In this document: one piece after another, positions 23,266-54,707 of the stretch | How positions within the stretch are numbered: position 1 is the stretch's first letter | Layout of the letters: each line of letters begins with the position of its first letter | Source: Candidatus Paceibacter sp. | Lineage (GTDB): Bacteria; Patescibacteriota; Minisyncoccia; Phycocordibacterales; BOKC01 | Length of the DNA: 64,000 nucleotides | NCBI GenBank assembly: GCA_020724885.1 | Contig: DYGD01000003.1 | Span: 3,103-67,102 of the forward strand | Direction of reading: 5' to 3' | Program-made: the position numbers and the translations under genes | Notes under the pieces: generated by a model | The model's database searches: none | What the model was told of the DNA's origin: nothing | The model's input: the letters and a program-made list of their open reading frames with translations, nothing else

Positions 23266-23357
23266 CAGAATTTGGTATCTTGTTAGCGGAAATGCACCCA
23301 GACGAAGGCGTGTTGCCTTTGTCGGACAGAACAAACGAACCCTGTCAGGAGATAGAA

Positions 23358-23762
23358 ATGCCAAGGTTTACCCTGAATTTTCGAGACGGAACCACCGGGG
23401 TAGTGGATGGGGAGACCATCAGTGATGCCTGCAGAATCTACAACCATCGGCCGGTTCATGTTCTCGCAGATCTTCAAAACTACACCACGGAAGATGGCCA
23501 AGAAGTTCCTGTGGCCGGAATCGCAGACTGTGGTTGCTTCTACCACGCGGAGCGGGGTGAAGCATGCCGCCACGATCTCGAAAAGGCCGGGATCATTACA
23601 GCCAGCGACAATGGCTGTGATACGGACGAGCATGACCGCCGTGATTTTGAGTGCGGTCCGCAACTTCTCGATCCGGCGCTTCGCGGTCTTGATGCTAGCA
23701 AAGTGCCGGCGGAGAGGCCGGAGGAATGCTTTCCGGGCGATGCCCAACGCAGGAATGCGTAA
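23358..23762 (+). CDS. hypothetical acidic Cys-containing protein (135 aa) in a G+C-rich island between rnpA and yidC
   Basis: AGGAGA RBS 6 nt upstream of ATG 23358; followed by a Rho-independent terminator; MPRFTLNFRDGTTGVVDGETISDACRIYNHRPVHVLADLQNYTTEDGQEV...; the competing minus-strand ORF 23283-23825 is Arg-rich at its N-terminus (alternate-frame artefact). Confidence 0.45.
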   Translation: MPRFTLNFRDGTTGVVDGETISDACRIYNHRPVHVLADLQNYTTEDGQEVPVAGIADCGCFYHAERGEACRHDLEKAGIITASDNGCDTDEHDRRDFECGPQLLDPALRGLDASKVPAERPEECFPGDAQRRNA

Positions 23763-23787
23763 GTGTCGATCTGAGCAGGTTCCTAAA

Positions 23788-23839
23788 CCGTACGCGACAC
23801 GCAAACGAAAGTTTGCTCCGCGCACGGTTTTTTCTTTTT
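23788..23839 (+). terminator. Rho-independent terminator after the island-b ORF
   Basis: CCGTACGCG...CGCGCACGG stem followed by TTTTTTCTTTTT. Confidence 0.6.
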
Positions 23840-23890
23840 ATTGCAATTCGTCAATCCCAAAAGATTGACTTAAATTTCACTTGCTATAAT

Positions 23891-23924
23891 TCCACTAATT
23901 TTCCCGATCGGGAAAATTAGTGGA
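23891..23924. promoter_or_regulatory. perfect 34-bp palindrome TCCACTAATTTTCCCGA|TCGGGAAAATTAGTGGA abutting a TATAAT -10 element upstream of yidC
   Basis: 17-bp perfect arms centred on CGATCG, starting 1 nt after TATAAT (23885-23890); TTGACT at 23865-23870. Confidence 0.5.
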
Positions 23925-24024
23925 ATTAGAGTGTAACGAATCGCTTAGAATTTTATCAACATTCAGATTAGGAACAAGTCGATATAAAATTGTAATTTTA
24001 AGGCAAATGATTTAAAATAGCCGA

Positions 24025-25326: not shown

Positions 25327-26880
25327 CTATTGCAATTCAAACACCCAAAGTGAATAGTCGTTTTTGTTGGTGAAAAAAATAAATTTTTCTGTTTCGTCTA
25401 AAAACAGATTGGTGGCGTCTATGTTTTCCAATTGAGATAATGGGAAAATTCGTCCGTCTGAAACATTAATTTCCCAAAGCGCGTCGCTGAAAGAAATTGC
25501 GCCTTGATACCAACTGTCCGGGTAAGCGAATCCTTCCGGTATAACTTCAGGCATAGCGCAGTAAAGAATTATGGGATTTTTCTTGCTCCAGACGCATTTT
25601 TCTGGAAAGGTGCCGCCAAAATCCGACAAGTCGCTTGTTTGCCTGCCGTTTAAATCAAAAAGATTAAATGAAATTCTACCTTGAGTTGACCCAGAATAAA
25701 CCGCTTTTGAAACATCGGGGCTGATTAAAGCAGATAACCCGAATATGCCGTCTAAAATTTTCCGCATTTCTCCGTTGCTATTTAAAATGTATGCCAGCCC
25801 CGGGAAAAGAAAAGACGGCTTGGTCTGAATTAAGATACCCTGCCCGTTTATGCCGGAAGCGCGCCACTCCCGCGCCGGCGATTCAAAAATTTGCTGTCTT
25901 TGGCTACCGTCAGGGTTAGCCAGAAAGCCAACCGAACCCGAAGCGTCCTCAAGTAAATAGAAAATTTTGTTTAAATTTGGTAGATAAATCAGATTTTTGA
26001 TATCAGTCGGCAGAAAATTTAGAGCTGTGCGATAAAATTCGTCCTCGTTTCCGTCTTCTGTAACTTCGGCCGGTTTTTTGGCGCCGGTTATTTCATTCAA
26101 TTTTTCTCTGGTTAATTCGTCTACAATACCCGTCGGCTCTGTCAGATTTTGCGGGGTAAGAATTTCAACAGTGTATTTTTCTTGGAATTTTTCAACCGCT
26201 ACTCTGGTTGCCGGTCCGAAAATAGTGGTTTCCAACCCCGGACTGCCGGCGCCAGTTGATGCAATTCTGGTATCCGGGTCCTGATTTAAGATCCTTTGCA
26301 AGTTTAGCACCGCCGCACCAGTGCTACCTTGGCGCAGTTCGGAAGTAAATTCATAGCCGGAGGCAACGGTGCCTGTTTCGGCGCCGGCCGTTAAAAGTCG
26401 CAAGCTAACACTCTCTACTGTTTCCCGATCTTCTTTTAGAAATCTCAAAATAACATTGTTCGGTCCGGCCCAGACGGCCTCTTGGATTTTGGGTATGGTG
26501 GTGTTGGAAACCCGACCTAGCCCGGAGGTCTCAACGTTTCCTTCCCAAATGTGGCCGGTGGCGCGGTCAACAAAACGAAATAAAGTTTCTCCGTTTAAGT
26601 TAAAGACGGTGGCGCCGGCAATCGGCCGTTCGGAAATTTTTCTCAATTGCGTCAAAAAGGTTTCTGCCGGCGCAATTGGCCTCTCCTCTGTCTGCCCCAA
26701 GCCATTTTGAGGAGTGGTTGGGCGCGGAGTGTCGGTCTCCGAAGTTCGGCCAAAAGGAAAAAAGTCGCGGACGCTTAACCCGTTCTGCCTTTCTCCCGCG
26801 CTCTGCCTGTTGGTGAAAATAAAAATTACAAAAAACAAGACAATCAGAATCAGAGCAATAATTATCAATTTTTTTTTCAT
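25327..26880 (-). CDS. membrane-anchored secreted protein with a peptidoglycan-binding (PG_binding_1-like) domain
   Basis: N-terminal signal-anchor MKKKLIIIALILIVLFFVIFIF; internal GSTGAAVLNLQRILNQDPDTRIASTGAGSPGLETTIFGPATRVAVEKFQ resembling the PG-binding repeat. Confidence 0.55.
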   Translation of the reverse strand: MKKKLIIIALILIVLFFVIFIFTNRQSAGERQNGLSVRDFFPFGRTSETDTPRPTTPQNGLGQTEERPIAPAETFLTQLRKISERPIAGATVFNLNGETLFRFVDRATGHIWEGNVETSGLGRVSNTTIPKIQEAVWAGPNNVILRFLKEDRETVESVSLRLLTAGAETGTVASGYEFTSELRQGSTGAAVLNLQRILNQDPDTRIASTGAGSPGLETTIFGPATRVAVEKFQEKYTVEILTPQNLTEPTGIVDELTREKLNEITGAKKPAEVTEDGNEDEFYRTALNFLPTDIKNLIYLPNLNKIFYLLEDASGSVGFLANPDGSQRQQIFESPAREWRASGINGQGILIQTKPSFLFPGLAYILNSNGEMRKILDGIFGLSALISPDVSKAVYSGSTQGRISFNLFDLNGRQTSDLSDFGGTFPEKCVWSKKNPIILYCAMPEVIPEGFAYPDSWYQGAISFSDALWEINVSDGRIFPLSQLENIDATNLFLDETEKFIFFTNKNDYSLWVFELQ

Positions 26881-26889
26881 TTTCTCAAT

Positions 26890-27756
26890 CTAAATAAGTT
26901 TACAGGTAAAATACTGACATGCTGGAGGGCCAGTTTCACTCCCCCAAATTTCTTTTACATATTCTTCGCATTCTTCTGGTGTGTTGAATTGTATTTGTGT
27001 TCGGTAGTTCATAACGACTTTCCGGTCGCCAACGCATTGATCTGGTGATGTTTCTTCCACATCTCCGTTCAACGCATAAACTGTCGGCCCAAAACAACGC
27101 CAGGCTTGACAGCTTTGGGATGGTCCTTCAAATTGTTCCCTTAACCACATTGTTTCAGAAACTTTTCTGGCGAACCGATCATTTTGGAAGAATTCTGCCA
27201 ACCAGAGCTGGCATGCTTCCGGACTTGATCTAGTAATCCCTTCATCACCCCGCTGACTAAAATCATAAGAACAAGAAAACTGTTTTTTTTGAAATGTGTT
27301 TTGAAGCACCTCGATAGAATATTTTGGCAATGTGGGTTGTGGTGGAGTTGGTTGTATTGGCGGTAGTGGTTCAATGCCGATTCGCAGAGATAAAATATTT
27401 GGATTAATGGTGTATAAAATCAGATAAGCGGCAATGGCCAGAATCAAACCGAGCACGGCTTTGGTAATTTTTTCCTTCCCCTCCTCTTTGCCCGTGAAAG
27501 AGTCGGTGGTGATATATTGAATCCCACCAATCATAATTACGATTACCGCCAAGACCCCGGCAATTCCTATCAAAATAGCGAAAGCGCCACTTAGGTAAGA
27601 AACCAAATTTATTTTTTCTCCGGCTTCCGGAGTAACTCCCGGAATCGGCGCCAAAGGCACATAGCCAGCATCTTGAGCAAAAATCAAAAATGGCGTCGCG
27701 ATTAGCGTTAAAGTAATTATTAAAATAATTGTTTTGGCGACTATTTTTATTTTCAT
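26890..27756 (-). CDS. putative VirB2/TrbC-like pilin-type protein with Cys-rich C-terminal domain
   Basis: Signal peptide then two long hydrophobic helices (LSGAFAILIGIAGVLAVIVIMIGG... / KAVLGLILAIAAYLILY) as in VirB2/TrbC pilins; C-terminal 150 aa with 10 Cys. Confidence 0.45.
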   Translation of the reverse strand: MKIKIVAKTIILIITLTLIATPFLIFAQDAGYVPLAPIPGVTPEAGEKINLVSYLSGAFAILIGIAGVLAVIVIMIGGIQYITTDSFTGKEEGKEKITKAVLGLILAIAAYLILYTINPNILSLRIGIEPLPPIQPTPPQPTLPKYSIEVLQNTFQKKQFSCSYDFSQRGDEGITRSSPEACQLWLAEFFQNDRFARKVSETMWLREQFEGPSQSCQAWRCFGPTVYALNGDVEETSPDQCVGDRKVVMNYRTQIQFNTPEECEEYVKEIWGSETGPPACQYFTCKLI

Positions 27757-28745
27757 TGCGATAAATTAATTGAAACATCGGTGCCGGTATTTTGTAGTAA
27801 GCGGTTTTTATGCCGAACCGATACCGAGATTTCCGCTTGCCCCGTCGCTTGCTCTTCATTTCTCAAAGTAATTAAGCTTTGATTGCCGGTGGTTCTAATC
27901 GTCTGCCCGCTCTGTCGCCAGACATATTCCAGGTCGCGACTTTCTCTGAAAAAAGTTGAAAAAGAATAAGGGATGGCCGATAAAACTATTTCTCTGTCTT
28001 TTAATTCAAAATTTTGCAGGGCGCGGTTGAAAAGCAGTCCGTAAAGCGGGCTGTCTTCGTATATCAGAACCTGTGGATCGGTGTTAATGATGGTGGCGGT
28101 TTTCTCGGCCCGCATTGAATTGTTCTGCGTCGCCACTACGACTTTTATGCCTATCGGCCTAGTGATCGGGCCGGCGCCTATGGTTATCCGGTCGCGACCG
28201 ACCCCGGACAAATCTCTTAATAAGAGATTTTCTCTATACCAACTGTAAACCAAATTTTTCGGGTCAGCCATTCCGCCTTGGCTGTCTAAAAACAAAGGAA
28301 TAGCGGAGACCGTAATCTCACTGCGGTCGGTGAAAAGTGATCGGCCGGAATAAAACGGCGGGCTGTAGGTCTCGGCGTTCCAGACGATATTCACTTCCGC
28401 CGGCCGGATCACTATTTCCCTTCTGAAAGTTTGCCCCTCAAAAGTTTTTAATTCCAGATTTAAGCGGGTGGTGTCACCGGGGGCGCCAGCGTTAAACTCA
28501 AAACGGGTATTGCCAATCCCACTTTCTGCCAATTCTCCGTCTATAAACCAAGCTACTTCAGCTTTTTTAAGGTCGGTTAAATTCAGCTCAATATTGGCGG
28601 TGATTGTTTCAAAAGGCGCTGGATTGGCCGGACGCAAATTAAGTTTCAAAAACTCGTTCAGGATTGGCATCTGGGCGCTGGCTGGAAAAGCAAGCAAAAG
28701 CAGGGGAAAAACCAAAGAAGTTAGTTTTAGAAAAATCCCTTTCAT
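27753..28745 (-). CDS. secreted protein, function unknown (330 aa)
   Basis: Signal peptide MKGIFLKLTSLVFPLLLLAFPASA; translationally coupled (ATGA overlap) with the downstream gene. Confidence 0.5.
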   Translation of the reverse strand: MKGIFLKLTSLVFPLLLLAFPASAQMPILNEFLKLNLRPANPAPFETITANIELNLTDLKKAEVAWFIDGELAESGIGNTRFEFNAGAPGDTTRLNLELKTFEGQTFRREIVIRPAEVNIVWNAETYSPPFYSGRSLFTDRSEITVSAIPLFLDSQGGMADPKNLVYSWYRENLLLRDLSGVGRDRITIGAGPITRPIGIKVVVATQNNSMRAEKTATIINTDPQVLIYEDSPLYGLLFNRALQNFELKDREIVLSAIPYSFSTFFRESRDLEYVWRQSGQTIRTTGNQSLITLRNEEQATGQAEISVSVRHKNRLLQNTGTDVSINLSQ

Positions 28746-28820
28746 TGCCCTAATTTTAGCATATTTAGACGCGGGCGCGGGTGAAGCTGTGAATTTTTTG
28801 CTCCTGGAACTGTTTGGAAT

Positions 28821-29267
28821 TCAAACCGGCTTAGCGACTTTGCCGATAGCAAGCAATTCCTCTCTTTTTTCAAAAAAAATAGTGAAAAATACGGAGGCGG
28901 TGATAGCCGGAAGTGGCGTCCAGGAAAACAGAAAACCCAAACCCATTGATGCTAGTTTTTTAGGTGTTAACATCCGAACTCCTTTTAATGAAAACCAGAA
29001 AAAGAAAATGCCATACGCCAAAACGCTGATGGCTAATCCGATTATTTGTCCAGCGATCGGTATAATGTTTATTAAGGCAATCAGGAGATCAAAAAAAATG
29101 GCGGTCCCGTACATTAAATACTTGGTTCCTTGGCTCAATTTCTCACCATTTCCACCGCTAGCCCTGGCTTTATTGGGCGAGGTATTAGGAGGCTCCTTTT
29201 TTTCTTGCCGTGGCCTAATATGATGCGCCTCTGTTTTTTGTTGCGCGGACTTTTGTTGTTCATCCAT
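28821..29267 (-). CDS. small polytopic membrane protein (148 aa)
   Basis: Three hydrophobic helices after a charged N-terminus; sits between the VirB4-like ATPase and the secreted protein. Confidence 0.45.
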   Translation of the reverse strand: MDEQQKSAQQKTEAHHIRPRQEKKEPPNTSPNKARASGGNGEKLSQGTKYLMYGTAIFFDLLIALINIIPIAGQIIGLAISVLAYGIFFFWFSLKGVRMLTPKKLASMGLGFLFSWTPLPAITASVFFTIFFEKREELLAIGKVAKPV

Positions 29268-29295
29268 TTTTATATTTTGTTATTTAGCCATTTGG

Positions 29296-31125
29296 TTATT
29301 TGTTCTCGGTTTCTTCTAGCTCCTGCTTGGCTTTTTTAATTGCCAGAATCTGCGACGGGTCGGAGGTGATAATCTGGTCTTCGGTGTAGGAAGCAATAAT
29401 TTTTATGGCCACGTGTTTTAAGCCGGCAAAGAAGATTCCCTCGCCAACTCCTGACTCTAAAAGCAGAAACTTTTCCTCGTCGGTCAGGTTAAAGACCTTT
29501 TGGAGTTTGTCTATTACGGTAGGCGATTGCTTAAGCAGGACCTGAATTGAAGAATTGGTGATAATCGGCAAACCGTAGGGTGATTTCAAAAAATCGTCAA
29601 CGTCTTGGGTGATAGTAGAAAGACCGAGATAGTATTTTCTCCCTCTTTTTGCCAAACTAAGCAAAAAAGAAGCCGTGTCTTCGGATTTCATCATCCACCA
29701 TGCCTCATCTATAACCAAAAGCCGTTTTTTCAGTTCTTTCCGGATAGCGTTCCAGATGTAATGCATAACTATATACATTGCCACTGGCTTTAGCTCGTCT
29801 TCCATATCGCGCAAAGAAAAAACGATAAATTTGCTGTTGATGTCTATGTTGGTTGGCTGATTGATAAAACCAGACCAGGTGCCGACGGTGTATTTTGTCA
29901 GACGTTGGGCTAAAGATTCAGCCCCCTCCATCCCCTTCAAGACCGTTTCAAAATCGGAAAGCAGAGGCGCTTCAACATTTGAGAAATCGGACTCGGTGGT
30001 GATATCTTTCAGGGCGTAGGTCTCGCTGATAGCGCGGTCAATAATGGCGTCTTCTTCCGGTGTCAAACCGCCTAGCATCAATCGGAAAAGTCCGACCAGG
30101 TTAATGATGTGCGAGCGCAAAACATCAGAACGAGATTCATCTTCGGCCGCAATCGGCAAGTCAAACGGGTTGATGTGGTGTTCTGATGTCAGTGAGATTT
30201 TAAAATAGCGACCGCCGATAGCATCAGCCATATATTCATATTCACGCTCCGGATCAATCACCATCACGTCGGTATCAAACATCAGAGTTCTCAAAATTTC
30301 TAGTTTTGTCGTGTAGCTTTTGCCGGAGCCGGATTTGGCGAAAATTACCGAGTTATAATTCTCCAAAGAGAAGCGATCAAAGAGAACCAAGCTAGAGTTG
30401 TGGCGGTTGATACCGTAGAGGATTCCCCGGTCCGAAGTCAAGTCAAAAGAGATGAAAGGAAACACGCTTGATAAGGGCGAAGAATTAAGTTTGGAGTGAA
30501 CTTCCAAAAGGTCGGTGCCGATTGGCACTACGCTTTTTAAGCCCTGCTCTTGTTGGAAAAGAGCCGGTTTGACATAGACAAGCTGGGCTTCCAGAATTGA
30601 CTTCATTTCTGTCTCTATTTTATCCATCTCTTCTTCGTTGTCGGCATAGATTGAAACATATAAACCAACGTCAAAAATTTTTTCTTGGGCTTGTTGCAGT
30701 TGATCGCGCAATGCTTCCAAGTCGGCATACGCGGTGTCAAGCATTGGGTCGCGGACCATACCTTTCTCTTCTCGGGTGTGGATCTGGCTCTGGATTTCCG
30801 CGACCTTTTTTTGGAATTGCTTTAAAATTCTGGCGGTGTCTATTGGGTGCACAAAAATTGAAACATCAAAAATTTTGTCCAAGTTTATAATCGGGGCAAA
30901 CCATCCTTCGGCCAAATATCTTGGATAAGAGATAACAAAATAAGTTCTGACAATTTTGTTGCCCAGATTCAATTCTCGCGGGCCTACTTTCAAAGCGCTG
31001 GGCGCGATAATATCTTTTAGCTCCAAAGCGCTGGCCCGATAAAGTTCTTGGGGCAGAATGAGATTTTCCTCCGCCTCCCCGCCCTCCTCATCTTTCTTTT
31101 TTTTGAACAAACCTAAAAAACTCAT
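29296..31125 (-). CDS. virB4: VirB4/TrbE/CagE-family type IV secretion ATPase (ATPase domain portion)
   Basis: Walker A FAKSGSGKSYTTK, Walker B-like LLVIDEAWWMM, TrbE-like C-terminal region; start set at ATG 31125. Confidence 0.75.
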   Translation of the reverse strand: MSFLGLFKKKKDEEGGEAEENLILPQELYRASALELKDIIAPSALKVGPRELNLGNKIVRTYFVISYPRYLAEGWFAPIINLDKIFDVSIFVHPIDTARILKQFQKKVAEIQSQIHTREEKGMVRDPMLDTAYADLEALRDQLQQAQEKIFDVGLYVSIYADNEEEMDKIETEMKSILEAQLVYVKPALFQQEQGLKSVVPIGTDLLEVHSKLNSSPLSSVFPFISFDLTSDRGILYGINRHNSSLVLFDRFSLENYNSVIFAKSGSGKSYTTKLEILRTLMFDTDVMVIDPEREYEYMADAIGGRYFKISLTSEHHINPFDLPIAAEDESRSDVLRSHIINLVGLFRLMLGGLTPEEDAIIDRAISETYALKDITTESDFSNVEAPLLSDFETVLKGMEGAESLAQRLTKYTVGTWSGFINQPTNIDINSKFIVFSLRDMEDELKPVAMYIVMHYIWNAIRKELKKRLLVIDEAWWMMKSEDTASFLLSLAKRGRKYYLGLSTITQDVDDFLKSPYGLPIITNSSIQVLLKQSPTVIDKLQKVFNLTDEEKFLLLESGVGEGIFFAGLKHVAIKIIASYTEDQIITSDPSQILAIKKAKQELEETENK

Positions 31126-31126
31126 A

Positions 31127-31768
31127 TTATTTTTCGTTAATTTTGATGGCCTTTTCGAGCTCTCCGGGGTTAAATGTTTTGTAAAACAATTCAACCACTT
31201 CTTCCGTTTTTAAGACCGCCGTTCTAAGACCAAAACTTATAAGCCCTTGTTCAATAACCGAGATTCTCTGCTCCAGTTGGGTGATGTTTTCTTCAAACCC
31301 GCTTTGTTGTGTGTCTTTTTTGGTTTCTTTTTTCCCGAATCTACCAAAAGAAATTTTGCCACCGGCTTTGCCGAGAATTGCCGGCGAGTATGGCACAATG
31401 ATAAAAAAATGCTTGGTCATTATATTTGTGCTTTCGGTGAAGGCCTTAATGAAGCCGATGTATTCTCTGACCTGGATTTTCATCAGGTCGCTCTTCTGTT
31501 CTCGCTCTCTTTCTTCGAGCAGGGTTATGTATGGCCGGATATCCAATCTTCTGGATTGGATGACAATTTGGATTGAAAAATCCAGAGAATTCAGAAGATT
31601 TTGGAACTGATAAATTATCGCTTTTCTTTCATCTTCTGACTTTAAGGCAAAATTTGTTGATGAAACCATCAAGACGGCCCTCAAGCTGTTGTCTTTTAAT
31701 TTTATTATTCCATCCCGAATTTCTTTTATTGGGACGAATTCTTGTGTCGCCTTCGCTGATAAAGCCAT
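31127..31768 (-). CDS. VirB4/TrbE N-terminal-domain protein (separate ORF; split or frameshifted virB4)
   Basis: FVPIKEIRDGIIKLKDNSLRAVLMVSSTNFALKSEDE matches the CagE/TrbE/VirB N-domain; stop TAA (31129-31127) is 1 nt from the ATG of the ATPase ORF in a different frame; combined length about 820 aa, a full-size VirB4. Confidence 0.6.
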   Translation of the reverse strand: MALSAKATQEFVPIKEIRDGIIKLKDNSLRAVLMVSSTNFALKSEDERKAIIYQFQNLLNSLDFSIQIVIQSRRLDIRPYITLLEEREREQKSDLMKIQVREYIGFIKAFTESTNIMTKHFFIIVPYSPAILGKAGGKISFGRFGKKETKKDTQQSGFEENITQLEQRISVIEQGLISFGLRTAVLKTEEVVELFYKTFNPGELEKAIKINEK

Positions 31769-31825
31769 AAGAAATTTTATTGCAAACTTGGAAGATGCTA
31801 GAAGTTTACCCGCGGTGTTAATTCT

Positions 31826-32308
31826 TTATTCTCCGCTACCGCCCATTTTAACATTTTTTTCTGCCGTTTTTTGCGCCAAATTGCTATCCTTGTATCTTCT
31901 GATTTCAGCACCCTGCTCTTTTATGTCTAAGTTCCAAGTGAGCTCCTTTAGCTTGGAGCCGGACATTCGAGGAATCATACTACTGGCCGCTTTTTCGCGG
32001 ATAATTTCTTCGGCGATTTCAACTTTTGGATCCTGCTTTTTCCAGATATAAAGTTTCCCACCAGCCAGATACTTGAAAGCTGCCTCCAGAATTTCAATAA
32101 ACGGCTTATTGTTGATCTTCCAAAAAGCCAGAGCAATTCCCAACCCGCCCATTGGAATTATCAGAAAAAAAGCCAGGAATTTCGGCAGAGCGTTGTATAA
32201 AACGACGATAATCCCAGCCGTACCGGCCAGATAGATAAATTGTTTCAAGGTAAAAGGCCCGATAATCTTGTCTTCCACTTCTATAAATTGGGGGACTTGA
32301 AAACGCAT
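31826..32308 (-). CDS. putative VirB3/PrgI-like small membrane protein
   Basis: 160 aa; N-terminal two-helix hydrophobic hairpin (FIYLAGTAGIIVVLYNALPKFLAFFLIIPMGGLGIALAF) then a charged tail; immediately upstream of the VirB4 genes. Confidence 0.4.
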   Translation of the reverse strand: MRFQVPQFIEVEDKIIGPFTLKQFIYLAGTAGIIVVLYNALPKFLAFFLIIPMGGLGIALAFWKINNKPFIEILEAAFKYLAGGKLYIWKKQDPKVEIAEEIIREKAASSMIPRMSGSKLKELTWNLDIKEQGAEIRRYKDSNLAQKTAEKNVKMGGSGE

Positions 32309-32365
32309 GTCGTTTAATTACTCTAATTACTCTAATTTACCTAATTTCTAAACAAGCACCAATTT

Positions 32366-32641
32366 CTAATCTTCCCTAATCTTTTTATAAATGGAGTTAA
32401 AAATGAGATTTAATTCTTTTGCTTCGGTCCATAAAACTCTCGCCCTTTCTGCCATTTCAGGAACAGCTACTCCAGACATTCTTAAGAAGTGTTTTGATTC
32501 TCTTGATTCTTTCTTACAAATTCCGATCTTATGCCTGAAATCTTCCCTGCTCTCCGCGTCATCGGCTTCGCAGTAATTGGCACCGACACTTGTTCCAAAT
32601 TTAGCGGTTCTTTCTTCTAGAACATATTTGTCATCAGACAT
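32366..32641 (-). CDS. four-helix-bundle protein (family often annotated as 23S rRNA intervening-sequence protein), N-terminally short
   Basis: TSVGANYCEADDAESREDFRHKIGICKKESRESKHFLRM matches the conserved core of the family. Confidence 0.55.
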   Translation of the reverse strand: MSDDKYVLEERTAKFGTSVGANYCEADDAESREDFRHKIGICKKESRESKHFLRMSGVAVPEMAERARVLWTEAKELNLIFNSIYKKIRED

Positions 32642-32661
32642 TGGGATTTTCTTAGGTCAAT

Positions 32662-33708
32662 TTACTCAGTCGGTTCTCTATACGGATCCTCGTTGTGATA
32701 TCTTTCTTTCCTGGCATTTTCAATTTCTCTCGGATTTCTTTTCAAATCAGGTTCTTTGGTTGGTAAATTTTCCGGTGCTTGGCTTTTGGGCCGAAAGTCG
32801 GTCTGTTTTGAATTTCCAAAGACCTGATTTTCAAATGGGGTTTTCGGAGCGTATGATGGCGGATGCTCTATTTCTTCAAGAATTTTATTTTTATCAAGGT
32901 CTTCTTCGTTGCTGTCGCCAATTTCGTCGTGTTGGCTTTCTATCTCAACACCGCCGACGCTTCCCTTCCAGTCAAAATCGTCTGTGCCCAAGTCGCGCGC
33001 CGGCTCCACTCCATACCTTCTTTCCGCTTGAGCCGAAGCGTCGGCGCTCAATCGCGCGCCCAAGTTTCCACTCTGTGAAAATCTGGGCTGGTCTTGTTTA
33101 CCTAAGTTTTCGGCCGGCGAAAATCTGGCGGGTCTAGTTTGGGCAGGAGAGGTTCCAGTTCTCGGTTCTGTGGTCGGCGGGACGTATCTTTTTTCTGGAG
33201 TGCTTGTCGCTTTGGGCGTTTGGGGAATTTGCGCCAACTCTTGCCGAAGCCGTCTCAAGGATTCCCCATCGCCGTTTTTTGGTTTTGAAGCGGTTGGTGG
33301 AGAGTAGACCTCCGGTTCCCTTTTAAAAGCTTCGGAGGGGGTACCCTCTTTCCGGTCTTCCCCCTTCCCCTCTTCGTTTTCTGGTTCTAGAGAATTTTCA
33401 ATTGCTTCAAGGGTTTCTTCTACTGGTTGGAATATATTTTTATAAACATCCAATGCGATTGAGGTTGCCCGATCCAACCCGACTTCCAACCCCCTTTTTA
33501 CATTTCCCGTATAATCGCTCAAATCAGACAAGCCCAGCAAGACAAGATAGGTTTCGTCTTTCAATCTGGTCAGCTGATCTTCGCTGATACTGTGGGCGGT
33601 AGCAATTGCTTGGAATTTGTCCTTGAGACCCGGGTCCGTTATTACCGCCTTCAGATCTTCAGGCAGGATCGGATAAATCTCCTCTATTGTTTTTTGTAAT
33701 TCGTCCAT
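32662..33708 (-). CDS. low-complexity Pro/Glu/Thr-rich protein (348 aa), likely disordered
   Basis: Structured N-terminal 100 aa then P/E/T/S/K-rich sequence; embedded in the T4SS-like cluster. Confidence 0.45.
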   Translation of the reverse strand: MDELQKTIEEIYPILPEDLKAVITDPGLKDKFQAIATAHSISEDQLTRLKDETYLVLLGLSDLSDYTGNVKRGLEVGLDRATSIALDVYKNIFQPVEETLEAIENSLEPENEEGKGEDRKEGTPSEAFKREPEVYSPPTASKPKNGDGESLRRLRQELAQIPQTPKATSTPEKRYVPPTTEPRTGTSPAQTRPARFSPAENLGKQDQPRFSQSGNLGARLSADASAQAERRYGVEPARDLGTDDFDWKGSVGGVEIESQHDEIGDSNEEDLDKNKILEEIEHPPSYAPKTPFENQVFGNSKQTDFRPKSQAPENLPTKEPDLKRNPREIENARKERYHNEDPYREPTE

Positions 33709-33725
33709 TGTTTTTTTGATTTTTA

Positions 33726-35693
33726 TTATTGGGGTTTTTTGTCTCCGCCTGCGTCTTTATCTTTCTTTTCCTCGTCTTTTATCAGTTTCTTGAGCGTATC
33801 TTCCAAGGAATCTTTGGGTCCTTCAATTTTTTCTCCGACCTTGGCCTTTCTTACTTTTTCGGCTATTTCCTTACGCCTCTTTTTGCTAAGAGAAACAAGT
33901 AGTGTGCCAGTTTTGACTTGTGTTTTTTTATCGGTAAAAGGTATCCTTATTTTTATTGAAGGTCCTTCTTCTATCTTGCTTGCGCTCAGTTCTTGGATTT
34001 CTTTAAGTATTTCAGGGTCTATTTTTCCTTCCCGCTTTATCTCTCTTTCTTGCTCCTCTTTCTTTTTTCTGGCTTCTTGTATCGCTTTGTCGTATTTTGC
34101 ATTTATTGAGGCAACAACATCAGCGCTTGAAGTCCCGAGTTTTTGCGCCCTCGCTTGCTCGATGTCTCTTCCGGCATTTATTGTTTGTTCGTCCGATTGG
34201 AGTTTGGTGTTTAATTCTTCTATTCTTTTTTCGGTAGTTTGCTCTCTCGCCTTACGCTCATTTGATTTTCTTTCTGCTTCAGCTTTTGCGCTGTCATAAG
34301 CCCCCTTTCTCTTCTTTGTCTTTGCGTTTAAATTAGCTCCTGAAGGCCCCTTGCTACCAAACTTGCTTTTGCCGACCGCGCCGAGAGGAGCTCTAAGAGC
34401 CGACCCAACCAGTGTGTTGCCGAAGCGGGTTTTTCCAAGCCACGAGTCCGCTCCCGCTGCCAATCTTCCGGTATGTCTTGCTGGCGCGCTGGCCACTCTT
34501 TTGCTCGCGTTGGTCGCCCATTTCACCGCTTTTTCTCCGCCTTGAACCCCGAGTATTTTTGCGGCGATTATTGAGAATATTGCCATGCCGATGATTATTA
34601 TGAAATTCAGAACCAATTGAATACTGCCTTCCTTACCCGGTTCAAAAACCCCCTTTTGACCTTCTGTTGGAATTAAATCTACAAAGGATGCTTGGTTGTT
34701 GCCAACCACATCGCCCAAGATAACTAAAGTAACCCAAATCAGGGCCAAAAAAGCTGGCGCAAAAATTGCTTGAGAAATCAGAGCGTCCCACCATTTCTTG
34801 GACCATTTGTCGTTGGGTAAGGCCATTGCGGCGAAAGCTAGTGGCGACAAGATCATCAAAAATATGAAAACAACGAATCTGATCACAAGAAGTATGGCGG
34901 CGGCGGCAAAAACAAAAGCAACAATCATAAAAAGAAGTGAGGCGAGAAATCCCAACAATAGAATATTTATAAAACCCTTTCGCCCTCCTAATAATTTCGC
35001 CGCTCCGGCAGGATCCAAAAAGCTCTGCATCCCGAGCTTCTGCATAAAAGCTCCGGAAAGCCCCATATCGCCACCCGCATCTTTTATTTGTTCGTAGAAA
35101 AAAGTCGCGGTTATATTGGAGGTGTCAATAACCACTTTGGTGAAAAACAAACTGAAATTCAAGAGTAGAGCCATAATGACCACATGGACCAAGAGTTTTT
35201 TGGTGGTGGCAGTATCCATCCGCAATATGGTCATTATGGCGATATAGAGAATAATGAAAATAAAGAATATGTTGGCCAGGTCCCTGAAGGTTGACCACGC
35301 AGTATTTATACTAACCATTCCTCTGACCATTTCAGACATTTCCACAATGGTGTAGCTTATTGTCGTGTTTAGCAATAATCCGGACAAACCGAGCACCCAG
35401 CCGGCTATCATGAGTAGTAAACCAGCGACCCAGCCGGCTAAAAATTCTGCTACCTTTTCACCACATTTAGATATGTTTCTAAGGCCACATTTGTCGTTAT
35501 CTGCTTCTATATGCGCGGATGAATTTGCACTGGTGCCGTGAGCAATTCCTGCGCTGTTAACAGAAGTATCTAGCGCATTTACAATATTTCTATCAAAATT
35601 GTCAAAAGGAAAGGGTGCCACTGCGGTAAACAAAAATACCCCGATCATTGCCAGAGAAAATATTATTTTCTGTTTTTTGTTGACGTTAAACAT
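33726..35693 (-). CDS. VirB6/TrbL-like polytopic inner-membrane protein with charged coiled-coil C-terminal tail
   Basis: 655 aa; signal/TM, about 6-7 TM helices in the central 300 aa, then a long K/E-rich hydrophilic tail; architecture of TrbL/VirB6. Confidence 0.55.
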   Translation of the reverse strand: MFNVNKKQKIIFSLAMIGVFLFTAVAPFPFDNFDRNIVNALDTSVNSAGIAHGTSANSSAHIEADNDKCGLRNISKCGEKVAEFLAGWVAGLLLMIAGWVLGLSGLLLNTTISYTIVEMSEMVRGMVSINTAWSTFRDLANIFFIFIILYIAIMTILRMDTATTKKLLVHVVIMALLLNFSLFFTKVVIDTSNITATFFYEQIKDAGGDMGLSGAFMQKLGMQSFLDPAGAAKLLGGRKGFINILLLGFLASLLFMIVAFVFAAAAILLVIRFVVFIFLMILSPLAFAAMALPNDKWSKKWWDALISQAIFAPAFLALIWVTLVILGDVVGNNQASFVDLIPTEGQKGVFEPGKEGSIQLVLNFIIIIGMAIFSIIAAKILGVQGGEKAVKWATNASKRVASAPARHTGRLAAGADSWLGKTRFGNTLVGSALRAPLGAVGKSKFGSKGPSGANLNAKTKKRKGAYDSAKAEAERKSNERKAREQTTEKRIEELNTKLQSDEQTINAGRDIEQARAQKLGTSSADVVASINAKYDKAIQEARKKKEEQEREIKREGKIDPEILKEIQELSASKIEEGPSIKIRIPFTDKKTQVKTGTLLVSLSKKRRKEIAEKVRKAKVGEKIEGPKDSLEDTLKKLIKDEEKKDKDAGGDKKPQ

Positions 35694-35695
35694 TT

Positions 35696-36982
35696 TTACA
35701 GCGCCTTAGTTCGTGCAATGACGGGCGATGAAAGATTTGATTCCCCCGCTTCATTGAAAGCCGAGATCTGATAGATGTATTCGGTGTCGGGCAATAGACC
35801 AACGTCGGTAAAAATGGTTTCAATGGTTGTGACGATCGCCTCCCCGTTTCTAAAAACTCGATAATTTATTGATCCAACTTGGCCGACTGACGCTTCCCAG
35901 CTCAAACTTATATTTGATTGGGTAATTTCTGTCGCGGTCAATTTTTCCGGAGTCAAAGGAACAAAACTTCTGGTCGGGACGATAAACTTGCCTTGGCTAT
36001 CTTTCTCTCGGGTGTCTGATGCCTCTTTTAAACCACCGCTACTCAAAACGCTGGTTATAAGATTGCTAGAAAGGGCTTGCAAAATCCGATCAAAACTATC
36101 GGCCGTTTCAAGCTCTCGTAATTCGGAGCCCAAAACCTGATCCAAGCTGTTGGCGATTGTTTTCCCGGGAGTGATGATGTTGCCCCCGTCGTCGGTTAGA
36201 GAAAAGAAGCCGTCGCCCCAATTCAACTTCATCAGTTCTATATTTTGAGCGCTGGAAATTCTGGCGCCGAGTTCTGTTTCGGCCGCCAACAGCGCGCCAT
36301 AAGCGTTGTTTTGTGGCTGAATAATTTGGAACCATCCGTCCCAACCGCCGACAGCAAAACCGTCCGGCTTGGTGAAAGCGGCATAATTTTCAGCATTACT
36401 GATGGCCCCATCAAGGGTGCAGGACCATTGAGATCTTTGAGGTTCAGAGCGACCACTGTAGCGGAAATCAAGTAAGCTTCTCAAATTAAAACCAAAATCA
36501 GGAATGTTGGTTTGAAATGGTTGACAGAGAGAATTAAGCCCAGACCCATTTATAAATTCACCGGAAACTTGGTCGGCAATATCCAAAAAATATCTGCTCG
36601 GATCGGAAACAAAAGCCGGACCACCGTTAAATTCAGAATAAATCCATTTGATCATACTACTTGTCAGTTGCCCGGTAATTTCGCTGGAAATCTGACGAGC
36701 AATAAAGTCATGACTGGTCGGCGCCAGCCCAGCGGCCATGCCTGGACTAGGAGACAGAGGATGAATGCCCGGCACCTGGCCGACTTCTTTGGCGGTTTGA
36801 GCGCCCGCGGCAATGGCGGTTTGCGTTTGCAAAGTATTGAGTTGAGTGCCAAGCAGGGCGTCAATCGGCACATACGGATACTGCTGGGCTTCCGAGAAAT
36901 TCGGGTTGGAAAAAATCCCCACAATCAACGCAAAAAAACCTGCCGAAACCAGCCCGTATTTTTTTCTTTTAGAAATGTTCAT
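35696..36982 (-). CDS. secreted protein with C-terminal fibronectin type III domain
   Basis: Signal peptide; C-terminal LTATEITQSNISLSWEASVGQVGSINYRVFRNGEAIV...TEYIYQISAFNEAGES is an FN3 fold signature. Confidence 0.55.
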   Translation of the reverse strand: MNISKRKKYGLVSAGFFALIVGIFSNPNFSEAQQYPYVPIDALLGTQLNTLQTQTAIAAGAQTAKEVGQVPGIHPLSPSPGMAAGLAPTSHDFIARQISSEITGQLTSSMIKWIYSEFNGGPAFVSDPSRYFLDIADQVSGEFINGSGLNSLCQPFQTNIPDFGFNLRSLLDFRYSGRSEPQRSQWSCTLDGAISNAENYAAFTKPDGFAVGGWDGWFQIIQPQNNAYGALLAAETELGARISSAQNIELMKLNWGDGFFSLTDDGGNIITPGKTIANSLDQVLGSELRELETADSFDRILQALSSNLITSVLSSGGLKEASDTREKDSQGKFIVPTRSFVPLTPEKLTATEITQSNISLSWEASVGQVGSINYRVFRNGEAIVTTIETIFTDVGLLPDTEYIYQISAFNEAGESNLSSPVIARTKAL

Positions 36983-36983
36983 T

Positions 36984-37883
36984 TTAATGAGCCGCGACTC
37001 TAACTTGGATTGCTCTTTCTATCACATACCCAAGCTCGTCTTCCGAAAAAACAATCTTGTTTTTTTTCAGATAGCTGTCAATTTGTTTCAAGGCCTCATG
37101 CAGGTCGGCGCCGTAGCCGGCGTAATTGGTCAAGACCAAAATTCCGTCAATCGGGTCAATCAAAACCGACTCAAAGTTTTGCACGCTGTTTTTGACTCCA
37201 TTTAAGGCATTGATCATATTCAAATGACCGGAAGAGATTTCAGCCGGAACTTCGGTTTTCAAATATTCCGCAATCAAGTTGTTGTAATTTTTGACGACCG
37301 CTTCAAGCGCTATCAAGTCGGCCGAATTTTTGGACATCATTGCCTTGGCAAGTATTTCGCTCGGGTCGGTGGTCTCGCCAGCGAAAGCGTATTTGACAGC
37401 GATTTCTCCGATTTTGTTGCCATAATTGCGGAGCGATTCGGAGTCATTCTTTCCTGTTATTTTCAGGTCGGAAATTTGATAACTTGGCGCCGCTTTTCTT
37501 GCTATCTCGCGGTCAACCGGATTTTTCTGTAAGACATTTTCCACCAAAACGCTTTCATTGGGCTTCTGGTCGGCTAGAAAAAATTCTTCCAAAACACTCT
37601 TTGCCAATTCTTCTGAATAAGCCCCACTGACTCTGGGGATGATATTTTTTTGTCGAGCTAGAATATTTTTCTCCCAATCGGATAAAGTATTTTTATCGGT
37701 CGTCCCGACTCCGTTAGCCGATAAAAGCACTGGCTCGGCTTTGTAGCTTACACTGCCGGCGACACCATCGTGCCACTTATAAGACAGAGACCCCAAAATA
37801 ATGAAGGCAGAAAAGATTCCGGCGCTTGTAATCGCAAATATTTTTTTATTCTTTCGGGAGTTAAGCATAGAATTCAAGAACAT
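36984..37883 (-). CDS. membrane-anchored hypothetical protein (300 aa)
   Basis: Start set at ATG 37883 (MFLNSMLNSRKNKKIFAITSAGIFSAFIILGSL TM anchor); a TATAAT overlaps the start (possible leaderless mRNA); the track ORF extends to 38186. Confidence 0.45.
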   Translation of the reverse strand: MFLNSMLNSRKNKKIFAITSAGIFSAFIILGSLSYKWHDGVAGSVSYKAEPVLLSANGVGTTDKNTLSDWEKNILARQKNIIPRVSGAYSEELAKSVLEEFFLADQKPNESVLVENVLQKNPVDREIARKAAPSYQISDLKITGKNDSESLRNYGNKIGEIAVKYAFAGETTDPSEILAKAMMSKNSADLIALEAVVKNYNNLIAEYLKTEVPAEISSGHLNMINALNGVKNSVQNFESVLIDPIDGILVLTNYAGYGADLHEALKQIDSYLKKNKIVFSEDELGYVIERAIQVRVAAH

Positions 37884-38025
37884 TATACCAAAAAAACCGC
37901 CATTTTTTATTTTTATTTTTGTTGTGTGGATTGCTACGGACGACCTGACTTGTTGGGGTTTGTTCGGGTATCCCGCCACCACTTTGCCTTTTTCGGCAGA
38001 ACCTATAAAATGGAGGTTATTGGAT

Positions 38026-39093
38026 ATGGGCTTTAAAAGATTTTTAAAACCGTTCTTAAAATATTTGTTTGTGGTCGCCCTGTTTTTGGTTTTAATGTTG
38101 GCCGGAATTAATTTCGGTTTTTTGCAGAAGGATTTCCAGCCCGCGGTTGTTTTTCTGTCGGAATATTTTGATTTTTCAAAACTCAAGCTCGCCGAAGCAT
38201 CGATCCACTTTTTCTTTTTGTTTCCATCGGATAATTGCCGAGAGATAACTTACTCATACGGTGTGTTTCCTGAAAAAATGCCATCTTGTTACGGCATTTT
38301 TAATTCTTGGCGCAAATGGGGTTTTGACATTGACAGCGACTCTCATCCTCTTTGGCTGGTTTGGAATTATTGGCAAGAAAACACGGAACGGCGCCGACCG
38401 ATTACTTTTGGAGAATGGGAAACAGGGGCTTTACAGATGGGTTCTTCCTGGGCACCCTTTATGGAAAAATACGAAGGTTCGGTTGATGATATTCATAATC
38501 CTTGCCACGAAATCACTCTTTATTATACTTCTGATCCAAATTATACCGGGAGTTTTTACAACAAAGGATGGGGTAGTTATGGAGATTATTACAAAAGATG
38601 CGAAGAGAAATTCAATGAAACCAGCGGTTTTGAGTATGACGACCCCGACCACCCGCTCTGGCTTTTCTGGCAGATGTGGGATTCTGACGAAAAGGCGGAT
38701 AATCAGCGTTCCCAATTACCCCCTCTCTTTGATCAGTGGGAAACTGGCGCCGGTCTCTTAGCCCAAAGTGGTTGGGATTTTGCTAGGCAACCTTTTTTCA
38801 GCAGTTTGCCGGGTTTCGGAGGTAATCTTTCCATAGTTCATGATTGTACTTGCTATTTTAAAGACAAGTTGTTTTATATGACTCCTGTTCCTGGCAGTTG
38901 GTCGGGTCCGTATCTGGTCACGCCATCTTCAGATTTGCACCCGATTTATGGCAATATTTCGCCGGGTCGGTGGGTTCTTGGCGATGTCAATTCCGGCGGG
39001 GTTTGTATGATGCGCTCTAATACGGGCTGTTATCCGATCCCGACTATGTTTAAAGTTCAGCCACGCCCGGCCGGAATAGGCACCAGTCAGTGA
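38026..39093 (+). CDS. membrane-anchored protein with tandem Trp-rich repeats (355 aa)
   Basis: Start at ATG 38026 with GGAGG RBS; TM anchor; two copies of D(S/P)D(S/H)HPLWL(V/F)W..W...(F/L)(G/D)(E/Q)WETGA; several Cys. Confidence 0.5.
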   Translation: MGFKRFLKPFLKYLFVVALFLVLMLAGINFGFLQKDFQPAVVFLSEYFDFSKLKLAEASIHFFFLFPSDNCREITYSYGVFPEKMPSCYGIFNSWRKWGFDIDSDSHPLWLVWNYWQENTERRRPITFGEWETGALQMGSSWAPFMEKYEGSVDDIHNPCHEITLYYTSDPNYTGSFYNKGWGSYGDYYKRCEEKFNETSGFEYDDPDHPLWLFWQMWDSDEKADNQRSQLPPLFDQWETGAGLLAQSGWDFARQPFFSSLPGFGGNLSIVHDCTCYFKDKLFYMTPVPGSWSGPYLVTPSSDLHPIYGNISPGRWVLGDVNSGGVCMMRSNTGCYPIPTMFKVQPRPAGIGTSQ

Positions 39094-42057: not shown

Positions 42058-43050
42058 TTGTTTTTGAATCAGCCCTTTTTGGGTGTTTTTGGCTTGTTTT
42101 TGCTTGTGATTATCCCTTTTTTGGCTCAAGCCAACATCTTCCAGCGGATTTTTGATCGTGATAGGCATAATGAACCCGCGCAACTGCCAAACTCACAACA
42201 AATGGAATTGCTGGCACCGCCACTATCCCCCTTTAATTCAATTGGTGGTGGAGATATCACTATAGTTGACGGGGCTCTTTCAGCAGAGACCGGCTTTAGT
42301 GGTAGCTTGTTCTCTGAACCCGGCCGGAAGAGTGTTTATACCGTGAAAGAAGGAGAAACCTTATCAGAAATAGCCGAGATGTTTGGAATTTCTACAAACA
42401 CTTTAAGATGGAGTAATGATATCTCAGGCAGTACCATTAGGCCGGGACAAATTTTAACAATTCTACCTGTTTCCGGGGTGTCACATATTATTAAATCGGG
42501 TGATACTTTGCAAAAAATTGCCTCCCAATATAAGGGAGATTTAGAGGGAATCGCTTTTTACAATAATATTTCCAGAGACGCTAAGCTGGCTATTGGAACT
42601 GAAATCATAATCCCGGATGGAGTTATTCCGGCCGCCGCTCCATCTCCAAAGATTTCTACCTCTGTGGCGTCCAGACCGTCCACTGAAACAGCGGCGCAAG
42701 TCGGCTATTATATCAGGCCAGTTGTCGGAGGATATAGAAGTCAGGGGTTGCACTCTCAAAACGCGGTTGACATAGCGGTTTCCTTCGGCACTCCGATTCG
42801 GGCCGCCGCTAATGGCGTTGTAGACGCAATTTGTAATGGCTGGTGCGCCGGTTACGGCAATTTTGTCTTAATTGCTCATCCAAACGGTACCAAGACTAGA
42901 TATGCTCATAATAGTAAAAATCTTGTTATTGAGGGCCAACAGGTTTCTCAGGGAGAAATAATCGCTGAAGTCGGATCTACTGGTCGTTCAAGCGGTCCGC
43001 ATGTTCACTTTGAAATTGTCGGCCGTAATGCTCCAAGAAACCCATTTTAA
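42058..43050 (+). CDS. secreted LysM-LysM-M23 peptidoglycan endopeptidase
   Basis: TTG start; signal peptide; two LysM repeats (YTVKEGETLSEIAEMFGIS..., HIIKSGDTLQKIASQYKGD...); M23 core HPNGTKTRYAHNSKN...GSTGRSSGPHVHFEI. Confidence 0.85.
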   Translation: MFLNQPFLGVFGLFLLVIIPFLAQANIFQRIFDRDRHNEPAQLPNSQQMELLAPPLSPFNSIGGGDITIVDGALSAETGFSGSLFSEPGRKSVYTVKEGETLSEIAEMFGISTNTLRWSNDISGSTIRPGQILTILPVSGVSHIIKSGDTLQKIASQYKGDLEGIAFYNNISRDAKLAIGTEIIIPDGVIPAAAPSPKISTSVASRPSTETAAQVGYYIRPVVGGYRSQGLHSQNAVDIAVSFGTPIRAAANGVVDAICNGWCAGYGNFVLIAHPNGTKTRYAHNSKNLVIEGQQVSQGEIIAEVGSTGRSSGPHVHFEIVGRNAPRNPF

Positions 43051-45166: not shown

Positions 45167-45574
45167 TTAATTGAAGAGTAATAAGCCGTTTTTGCGATAA
45201 TGAGTGTCAAAACTAACTATTGCTTGAAAATTTCCCAAACGAAACAAGGCGATATTGGCAGCATCAACAAAACTAACATTTTTAGATCGCTGTGAACGAA
45301 AAATTTTTTTACTTTCCTCAAACAACCTTTCCGACGGATGAATGATGGTAATTTCTGCTCTTTCTGTATCGTTCATAAAGTGCCTAGCTACAGACTGGCT
45401 AACTCTCATAGACAAAACCGTTGTTATTTCGCCATAGACAAAAACTGAAAGAGCCAAATCCAGACCGCGCTCTTGGATTTTTTCAAGAACGGCCAAAGCT
45501 CGCTTATGGTTGCTGTCGTCCTTTTTATAAAGAGCGATGAAAAAATCGGCGTCAGCCAGCAATCTATTTTCCAT
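45167..45574 (-). CDS. vapC: PIN-domain toxin (VapC-like)
   Basis: MENRLLADADFFIALYKKDD...VSFVDAANIAL...SFDTHY: conserved PIN Asp residues; overlaps the upstream antitoxin by 11 nt. Confidence 0.6.
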   Translation of the reverse strand: MENRLLADADFFIALYKKDDSNHKRALAVLEKIQERGLDLALSVFVYGEITTVLSMRVSQSVARHFMNDTERAEITIIHPSERLFEESKKIFRSQRSKNVSFVDAANIALFRLGNFQAIVSFDTHYRKNGLLLFN

Positions 45575-45818
45575 AAAGATAAAAATCGTGCCTTTTAGAA
45601 AGGTCTTTTGGACCGCCTTTCCCGGCATGCTTTCGGGCGTTTTTTAACAATAAACTCGCATTAAAGTTTTTCTTTGGTTGGTAAAACTCCTTATGCTTCC
45701 AGGCGCGCAACATATCGCGAAAAAATTCGCTTTTGGTGCCGTATCGCCCTTGTTTGATTTCCTGTTCAATCTCTTGATAGAGATGGTCAGGCATAGAAAT
45801 GTTAACAACTTTTCTCAT
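45564..45818 (-). CDS. ribbon-helix-helix (CopG/ParD-like) antitoxin
   Basis: KVVNISMPDHLYQEIEQEIKQGRYGTKSEFFRDMLRAW RHH signature; directly upstream of and overlapping the PIN gene. Confidence 0.55.
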   Translation of the reverse strand: MRKVVNISMPDHLYQEIEQEIKQGRYGTKSEFFRDMLRAWKHKEFYQPKKNFNASLLLKNARKHAGKGGPKDLSKRHDFYLYGK

Positions 45819-52725: not shown

Positions 52726-52740
52726 ATTTCACCATCCACT

Positions 52741-53295: not shown

Positions 53296-53303
53296 CCACC
53301 TTA

Positions 53304-54704: not shown

Positions 54705-54707
54705 TTC

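Follow-up and report, generated by a model that had tools for sequence, protein, structure and literature searches.

What does a type IV secretion system (T4SS) do on a bacterial chromosome when no relaxase and no coupling protein is encoded close to it? This question is raised by a block of 12 co-directional minus-strand genes, tightly packed with intergenic gaps of -4 to 75 nt in the open reading frame (ORF) listing, at positions 25327–37883 of a 64,000-nucleotide stretch of Candidatus Paceibacter sp. (contig DYGD01000003.1; this whole stretch is hereafter the window). Our analysis indicates that the block is very probably the chromosomal T4SS of the Patescibacteria (Candidate Phyla Radiation, CPR) in its Paceibacteria layout, which would descend from the MPF_FATA group of conjugation systems of monoderm bacteria, would have lost its link to DNA mobilisation and would most likely serve contact between an epibiont and its host and the movement of macromolecules between cells, rather than plasmid transfer.

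Gene order is conserved beside the replication origin

A VirB4 scan of species-representative genomes yielded 80 related loci (L001–L080), all from metagenome-assembled genomes, whose named taxa are Patescibacteria lineages such as Zambryskibacteria, Taylorbacteria, Campbellbacteria and Nomurabacteria. Gene order and gene presence were counted in 44 loci that have full 10-kb flanks and come from different Paceibacteria species, and counts out of 44 below refer to this set. The order was kept in 44/44: dnaN, dnaA, rnpA and yidC, followed by the genes for the 517-aa protein, pilin, 330-aa protein, (148-aa protein), VirB4, TrsD, PrgI, (disordered protein), VirB6-like protein, fn3-family protein and (bitopic protein), and then by ksgA and uvrD, with brackets marking genes that were detected in part of the loci. 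The T4SS core genes were present in 41–44 of the 44 loci. In the window, one flank of the block carries dnaN, dnaA, rpmH, rnpA, yidC and jag, the other ksgA, uvrD/pcrA, a LysM-M23 peptidase gene and comM, and three independent assemblies of the species show an identical layout of the block. The block is a complete, clean example of the Paceibacteria layout, situated beside the replication origin.

A domain scan of the ORFs across the 64-kb window found no relaxase, no type IV coupling protein (T4CP) or other coupling ATPase and no integrase in any scanned ORF. A conjugative T4SS or an integrative conjugative element (ICE) is expected to carry a relaxase with a linked oriT, and no relaxase domain occurs in the scanned window ORFs. 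The absence of an integrase, together with the same flanking core genes in 44/44 loci, is likewise contrary to the variable presence that is expected of an ICE. A sequence-only reading of the stretch, which had noted the lack of a VirD4-like ATPase, relaxase and integrase, had proposed a chromosomally fixed, non-conjugative apparatus derived from a T4SS and had called for a check of cluster conservation in related genomes; the core-gene flanks, the shared order, the conserved VirB4, the domain scan and the published literature (PMC10633639; PMC12102498; PMC12857230) all support that proposal.

VirB4 and a free-standing TrsD-like protein form a conserved pair

The VirB4 ATPase (29296–31125, minus strand; 609 aa from the ATG at 31125) matched PF19044 (E 1.9e-28), AAA_10 (E 5.3e-12) and DUF87 in Pfam, and its P-loop is intact, with the Walker A motif AKSGSGKS and the Walker B motif LLVIDE. 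More than 8000 homologues were found, the best of them 80–100% identical; the closest relatives share 77–100% identity, and those with named records all come from Patescibacteria, Paceibacterota or Parcubacteria, Zambryskibacteria and the like. Across species, VirB4 is 77–85% identical.

The neighbouring 213-aa ORF (31127–31768, minus strand) matched only the N-terminal region of VirB4 models, with NCBIfam matches to the N-terminal region of VirB4_plasma (1.7e-13), to the CD1110 family (2.9e-7) and to TrsD/TraD (1.4e-5), and PF26593 (TraC-like) is recorded for the gene in independent assemblies. By these profile matches, it is classed as TrsD-like, a free-standing homologue of the VirB4 N-terminal domain. 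The two ORFs had been taken at first for a split VirB4 gene; the homology to VirB4 stands, the split does not. Direct reading of the junction (...KINEK-TAA-t-ATG-SFLGLF...) places the TrsD stop codon 1 nt before the virB4 ATG, the two proteins are encoded by separate ORFs, never fused, in 77/77 related loci, and the same two-gene structure is seen in the three independent assemblies, which together rule out a frameshifted or pseudogenised VirB4. Because the ORFs are separate throughout these loci, the two-ORF state is ancestral, as in pGO1-type Gram-positive systems, and TrsD and VirB4 form a conserved gene pair in the ancestral arrangement of the pGO1-type subclass of MPF_FATA.

On the other side of virB4 lies the gene for a small membrane protein of 148 aa (28821–29267, minus strand), which has no family match in Pfam or NCBIfam and a detectable homologue in 26 of the 80 related loci. 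In three of these, the homologue is fused in frame to the C-terminus of VirB4 (L001:9983–12163, L007:10001–12223 and L027:10001–12187), giving proteins of 727–741 aa. Since the two are joined in these relatives, an interaction between them can be expected, and the fusions suggest that the 148-aa protein is a likely VirB4-associated membrane partner in physical contact with the ATPase.

PrgI/VirB3-like and VirB6-like proteins are further membrane components

The PrgI/VirB3-like protein (31826–32308, minus strand; 160 aa) has a transmembrane hairpin and matched PF12666 with 34.3 bits, above the cut-off of 27, and a homologue is present in 44/44 loci. The polytopic 655-aa protein (33726–35693, minus strand) has about seven transmembrane segments and a long, charged, helical C-terminal tail, and is present in 43/44 loci. 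Several of its homologues carry PF04610 (TrbL) or PF19590, with 5 of 56 family members matching TrbL at a best E of 1e-6. An AlphaFold2 (AF2) model of the protein reached a mean predicted local distance difference test (pLDDT) score of 75.7, with the transmembrane core above 90, and the top three Foldseek matches of this model in the PDB were all TrwI/VirB6 of R388 (probability 0.80–0.99, E 0.04–0.09, target-normalised TM-score 0.28–0.42). Sequence or profile searches of the family against the PDB gave no significant match. Homologue domains and the predicted fold thus moderately support a VirB6/TrbL-like identity for this protein. Both membrane components had been proposed from the sequence; the first assignment held, and the second is supported indirectly.

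A VirB2-like pilin carries a variable C-terminal domain

The 288-aa product of 26890–27756 (minus strand) matched the T4SS_pilin family PF18895 with 31.6 bits, above the cut-off of 26.6, as well as the Mbov_0395 pilin-like conjugal transfer family of mycoplasma ICEs (E 9.9e-5). It is built from a signal peptide, two transmembrane helices with a Lys-rich loop between them, a Pro-rich linker and a C-terminal domain with eight Cys residues (residues ~145–288). The VirB2-like, two-helix character of the protein had been recognised correctly in the sequence-only reading, which had counted ten Cys in the C-terminal domain where there are eight. These eight may be arranged as two modules of four Cys each.

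The pilin core is present in 43/44 loci, and 10 of 10 related pilin ORFs tested contain the PF18895 domain. An extension of at least 60 aa follows the core in 59/66 related ORFs, whose total lengths range from ~130 to 560 aa. These extensions are often Cys-rich and mostly unrelated to each other in sequence, as 24 of them form one cluster and most others are singletons; those of the relatives gave no Pfam match. Because a Lys-rich loop separates the two helices, topology rules predict that the C-terminal domain faces outward.

The accessory proteins include secreted, putative wall-binding and adhesin-like members

At the end of the block in transcription order, the 517-aa protein (25327–26880, minus strand) has one N-terminal transmembrane segment, by which it is membrane-anchored, and a homologue in 44/44 loci. 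A PG_binding_1 domain was matched at residues 188–261 (E 1.9e-5, Pfam), in line with the peptidoglycan-binding protein named from the sequence. The family profile gave weak matches to TolB in the PDB and to PD40/DPPIV_N, and only 2 of 40 members of this propeller-like family have the PG_binding_1 insertion. The protein is thus probably a beta-propeller into which a PG_binding_1 domain has been inserted.

The 330-aa protein (27753–28745, minus strand) has a signal peptide and is present in 44/44 loci. It has no Pfam or NCBIfam match, and its family profile gave only weak matches to Hoc and to an antigen-receptor Ig domain.

The secreted 428-aa protein (35696–36982, minus strand), whose FN3 domain had been called correctly, combines one C-terminal fn3 domain (E 1.3e-9) with a conserved N-terminal domain of ~230–300 aa, and it is present in 41/44 loci. 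The family of this N-terminal domain is large, with at least 5049 cluster representatives at E<=1e-3, and the C-termini joined to it are interchangeable, comprising fn3, Ig-like, F5/8 type C (discoidin) and InlB B-repeat domains. The protein was also considered as a candidate VirB5-like tip adhesin. Profiles of 34 and 50 members of the N-terminal domain had no PDB match and only marginal matches to DUF4141 in Pfam, and an AF2 model built from nine sequences reached a pLDDT of ~33.

The first gene of the block in transcription order encodes a bitopic protein of 299 aa (36984–37883, minus strand) with one N-terminal transmembrane segment, detectable in 22/44 loci. A 400-aa ORF listed at 36984–38186 is an over-extension of this gene, which independent gene calls place at 299 aa. 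The protein is the only bitopic VirB8 candidate in the block, and it had no Pfam, NCBIfam or PDB-profile match. Searches of the 330-aa, 517-aa and 299-aa families against the PDB, by sequence and by profile, gave no significant match.

Between the genes for the VirB6-like and four-helix-bundle proteins lies that of the 348-aa protein (32662–33708, minus strand), which has no family match in Pfam or NCBIfam. It consists of a conserved N-terminal domain of ~100 aa and a tail rich in Pro, Glu and Thr that looks disordered by composition, and in the related loci a counterpart of this N-terminal domain alone was detected, in 11/44. As no transmembrane segment is predicted, the protein is probably cytoplasmic.

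Lineage-specific genes and the surroundings of the block

The gene at 32366–32641 (minus strand) encodes a four-helix-bundle protein of 91 aa, as was read from the sequence, with a match to TIGR02436 (E 1.7e-10; 23S rRNA IVP family) and to PF05635 below the cut-off. It lies between prgI and the gene for the disordered protein, occurs in each of three independent assemblies of the species and is missing from all 44 related loci. The gene is a lineage-specific insertion, and its product is probably no part of the machine.

The minus-strand direction and the tight packing of the block agree with the sequence-only reading, which had extended it to 39093. The block ends at ~37883, and 38026–39093 is a divergent plus-strand gene. 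Its 355-aa product is rich in Cys and Trp, has an N-terminal hydrophobic segment and an internal repeat (…HPLWLVWNYWQ… / …HPLWLFWQMWD…), and gave no family match. The gene is absent from all 44 related loci and present in independent assemblies of the same species; it is a lineage-specific addition, not a machine part. We also considered a domain shared between this protein and the tail of the pilin and rejected it, as a comparison of the two showed no similarity.

A scan for promoters and terminators across the block returned counts at chance level. The rest of the window holds housekeeping and type IV pilus genes. The domain scan located comM (43072–44643, minus strand), pilB (10009–11694, plus strand; T2SSE and MshEN) and a second T2SSE/T2SSF pair at 50442–52725 within a pilus locus (50442–55722, plus strand), which accounts for the comM, pilB and pilus operon listed from the sequence. 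Four ORFs without a Pfam match follow the second pair and are possibly pseudopilins. A gene for a LysM and Peptidase_M23 protein lies outside the block at 42058–43050, and such a gene is nearby in only 8/44 loci. At 45167–45818 (minus strand), a PIN-domain gene with a small upstream ORF resembles a toxin-antitoxin pair. In the ~740 bp between rnpA and yidC (23280–24020), ORFs of 160, 180 and 153 aa overlap on both strands; those of 160 and 180 aa had no Pfam match, and the stretch had no credible Rfam match.

Proposed function and alternative explanations

VirB2, VirB3, VirB4 and VirB6 are the pilus-building set of well-studied T4SSs. We propose that a VirB4 hexamer would work with the free-standing TrsD, held at the membrane by the PrgI/VirB3-like protein and the 148-aa protein, and would power the extraction of pilin from the membrane. 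On the VirB6-like protein as a platform, the VirB2-like pilin would then polymerise, and the resulting short pilus or tube would pass through the cell wall in the direction of the host cell, with the variable, disulfide-rich C-terminal domain of each pilin exposed outward. Secreted proteins with adhesin modules and the wall-binding propeller protein may anchor the structure in the wall and make contact with the host cell. A comparable arrangement has been modelled for Gram-positive VirB2-like proteins, as pili on VirB6 pentamers (bioRxiv 10.64898/2025.12.18.695078). Because no coupling protein is encoded in cis, classical recruitment of substrates for DNA export is unlikely, and for the same reason we lean towards pilus building combined with uptake, or towards coupling-protein-independent export; uptake from the host and export without a coupling protein are both possible.

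Several points weigh against this assignment. The 655-aa protein has no direct Pfam match of its own and resembles VirB6 in structure to a modest degree (E ~0.04, TM-score ~0.4). We could identify neither a VirB8-like nor a VirB1-like component within the block, and VirB8 was not found in most classes in the literature either (PMC12102498). The putative placing of VirB4 in the Patescibacteria clade draws on sequence similarity and the organism names of its relatives, and genes for a T4CP or relaxase could be located outside the 64 kb that our scan covered. Lastly, maturation could remove the C-terminal domain of the pilin by cleavage, a fate known from the C-termini of VirB2 and TrbC.

A further role may be imagined for the C-terminal domain, which we put forward tentatively and regard as doubtful. 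In this Paceibacteria clade, the single pilin might be a pilin-adhesin fusion, with a hypervariable, disulfide-rich domain tied by a Pro-rich linker to the outward C-terminus of each subunit. These domains, and with them the exchangeable C-termini of the secreted protein whose gene lies beside that of VirB6, would then cover the T4SS pilus and determine its host specificity. The arrays of divergent pilin genes in Saccharimonadia may serve the same end as such a decorated pilin. We found no decorated pilins of the conjugative type described in the T4SS literature cited here.

As an alternative, the block could encode a machine specialised in DNA uptake, comparable to ComB of Helicobacter pylori or the archaeal Ced system, that cooperates with the competence genes of the window; DNA uptake or cell-cell contact had been named as a possible role in the sequence-only reading. 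Neither ComB nor Ced has a coupling protein, the window does contain comM and type IV pilus genes, and import of DNA or other macromolecules by the T4SS has been proposed by Quiñonero-Coronel et al. (2025, Microb Genom; PMC12102498). We nevertheless judge this explanation unlikely. In Southlakia epibionticum, competence needs comEC and the type IV pilus, and a comEC deletion is viable whereas the T4SS is essential (PMC12857230); since comEC is dispensable there, the essential role of the T4SS is probably another than ComEC-dependent DNA uptake. The linkage to comM is also not conserved, for the gene lies ~5 kb from the block in the window and within +/-10 kb of it in only 2/44 related loci.

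The block could instead be part of a working conjugation system, either an ICE or a system for chromosomal transfer, whose relaxase, coupling protein and oriT are located elsewhere in the genome. T4CP genes are often encoded far from virB4, and the 64 kb scanned would have missed distant partners of this kind. VirD4-like matches have indeed been reported in most Patescibacteria genomes, but relaxases were found in only 103 of 3035, and the T4CP homologue of S. epibionticum is non-essential whereas its T4SS genes are essential (PMC12102498). With core genes flanking the block in the same order in 44 species, and with neither an integrase nor a tRNA-type boundary, a conjugative system appears very improbable. 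That the block is the decaying, functionless remnant of an integrated conjugative element with a broken VirB4, as VirB4 homology spread over two ORFs, the missing relaxase and T4CP and the many unannotated genes might suggest, is hardly credible and effectively refuted by synteny and conservation, given the two-ORF arrangement in 77/77 loci, its translational-coupling spacing, a VirB4 that is well conserved across species with intact Walker A and B motifs, and 12 tightly packed genes that are syntenic in 44 species with reduced genomes.

A Patescibacteria T4SS that most likely serves host contact remains the explanation that we favour. Few machines have been shown to be indispensable for the epibiotic life of the CPR, and the Patescibacteria T4SS is among them; the conserved accessory genes and variable surface domains of the block could guide experiments on host recognition.

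Comparison with known systems

The system itself is already known, as papers from 2023 and 2025 describe it, and the block represents no new kind of system. The T4SS cluster of S. epibionticum (SEML1_0006-0019) resembles Gram-positive conjugative systems, carries pilin genes, has no recognisable coupling or relaxase proteins and was found by transposon sequencing of strain ML1 to be essential for epibiotic growth on the host (Wang et al. 2023, Cell; PMC10633639). In the survey of 3035 Patescibacteria genomes, VirB4 was present in 2417, mostly as one clade nested in MPF_FATA, with TrsD, PrgI/VirB3, VirB6 and VirB2-like proteins widespread near virB4, and the Paceibacteria cluster was placed beside dnaA, dnaN, rnpA, ksgA and rpmH (PMC12102498). 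A 2025 review counts the Patescibacteria systems as a recognised T4SS type (PMC12857230).

The block agrees with these accounts in its composition, with VirB4, a separate TrsD, PrgI/VirB3, VirB6 and a VirB2-like pilin and neither a relaxase nor a T4CP nearby, and, as in the Paceibacteria reports, in its chromosomal site beside dnaA, dnaN, rnpA and ksgA and its host lineage among the Patescibacteria. Unlike the Saccharimonadia, which have an array of several divergent pilin genes, it encodes one pilin with a long, variable C-terminal domain. Its conserved accessories, namely the propeller protein, the 330-aa secreted protein, the secreted family with adhesin modules and the 148-aa membrane protein, are not named in PMC12102498 or PMC10633639.

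With the MPF_FATA systems (Trs of pGO1/pSK41, Tra of pIP501 and Prg of pCF10), the block shares VirB4 (TrsE/PrgJ), a free-standing TrsD, a VirB3-like PrgI/TrsC, a VirB6-like protein and a small two-helix VirB2-like protein (PrgF), as well as the absence of an outer-membrane core complex. It differs from them in having no relaxase, T4CP or oriT recognised in the window and no recognisable VirB8-like protein or VirB1-like hydrolase in the block, in being chromosomal and vertically conserved rather than borne on a plasmid or ICE, and in the additional domain of its pilin. Four other systems, Bordetella Ptl, Brucella VirB, H. pylori ComB and archaeal Ced, are likewise driven by VirB4, have no T4CP in the locus and serve non-conjugative ends, but the first three belong to diderms and have VirB7/9/10 cores, and Ced is an archaeal DNA importer; our sequence comparison with these coupling-protein-free T4SSs was confined to VirB4 and VirB6. 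To the published descriptions of the Patescibacteria T4SS, the present analysis adds the pilin extensions, the large secreted family encoded beside VirB6, the VirB4 fusions and the recognition of PG_binding_1 as a rare insertion.

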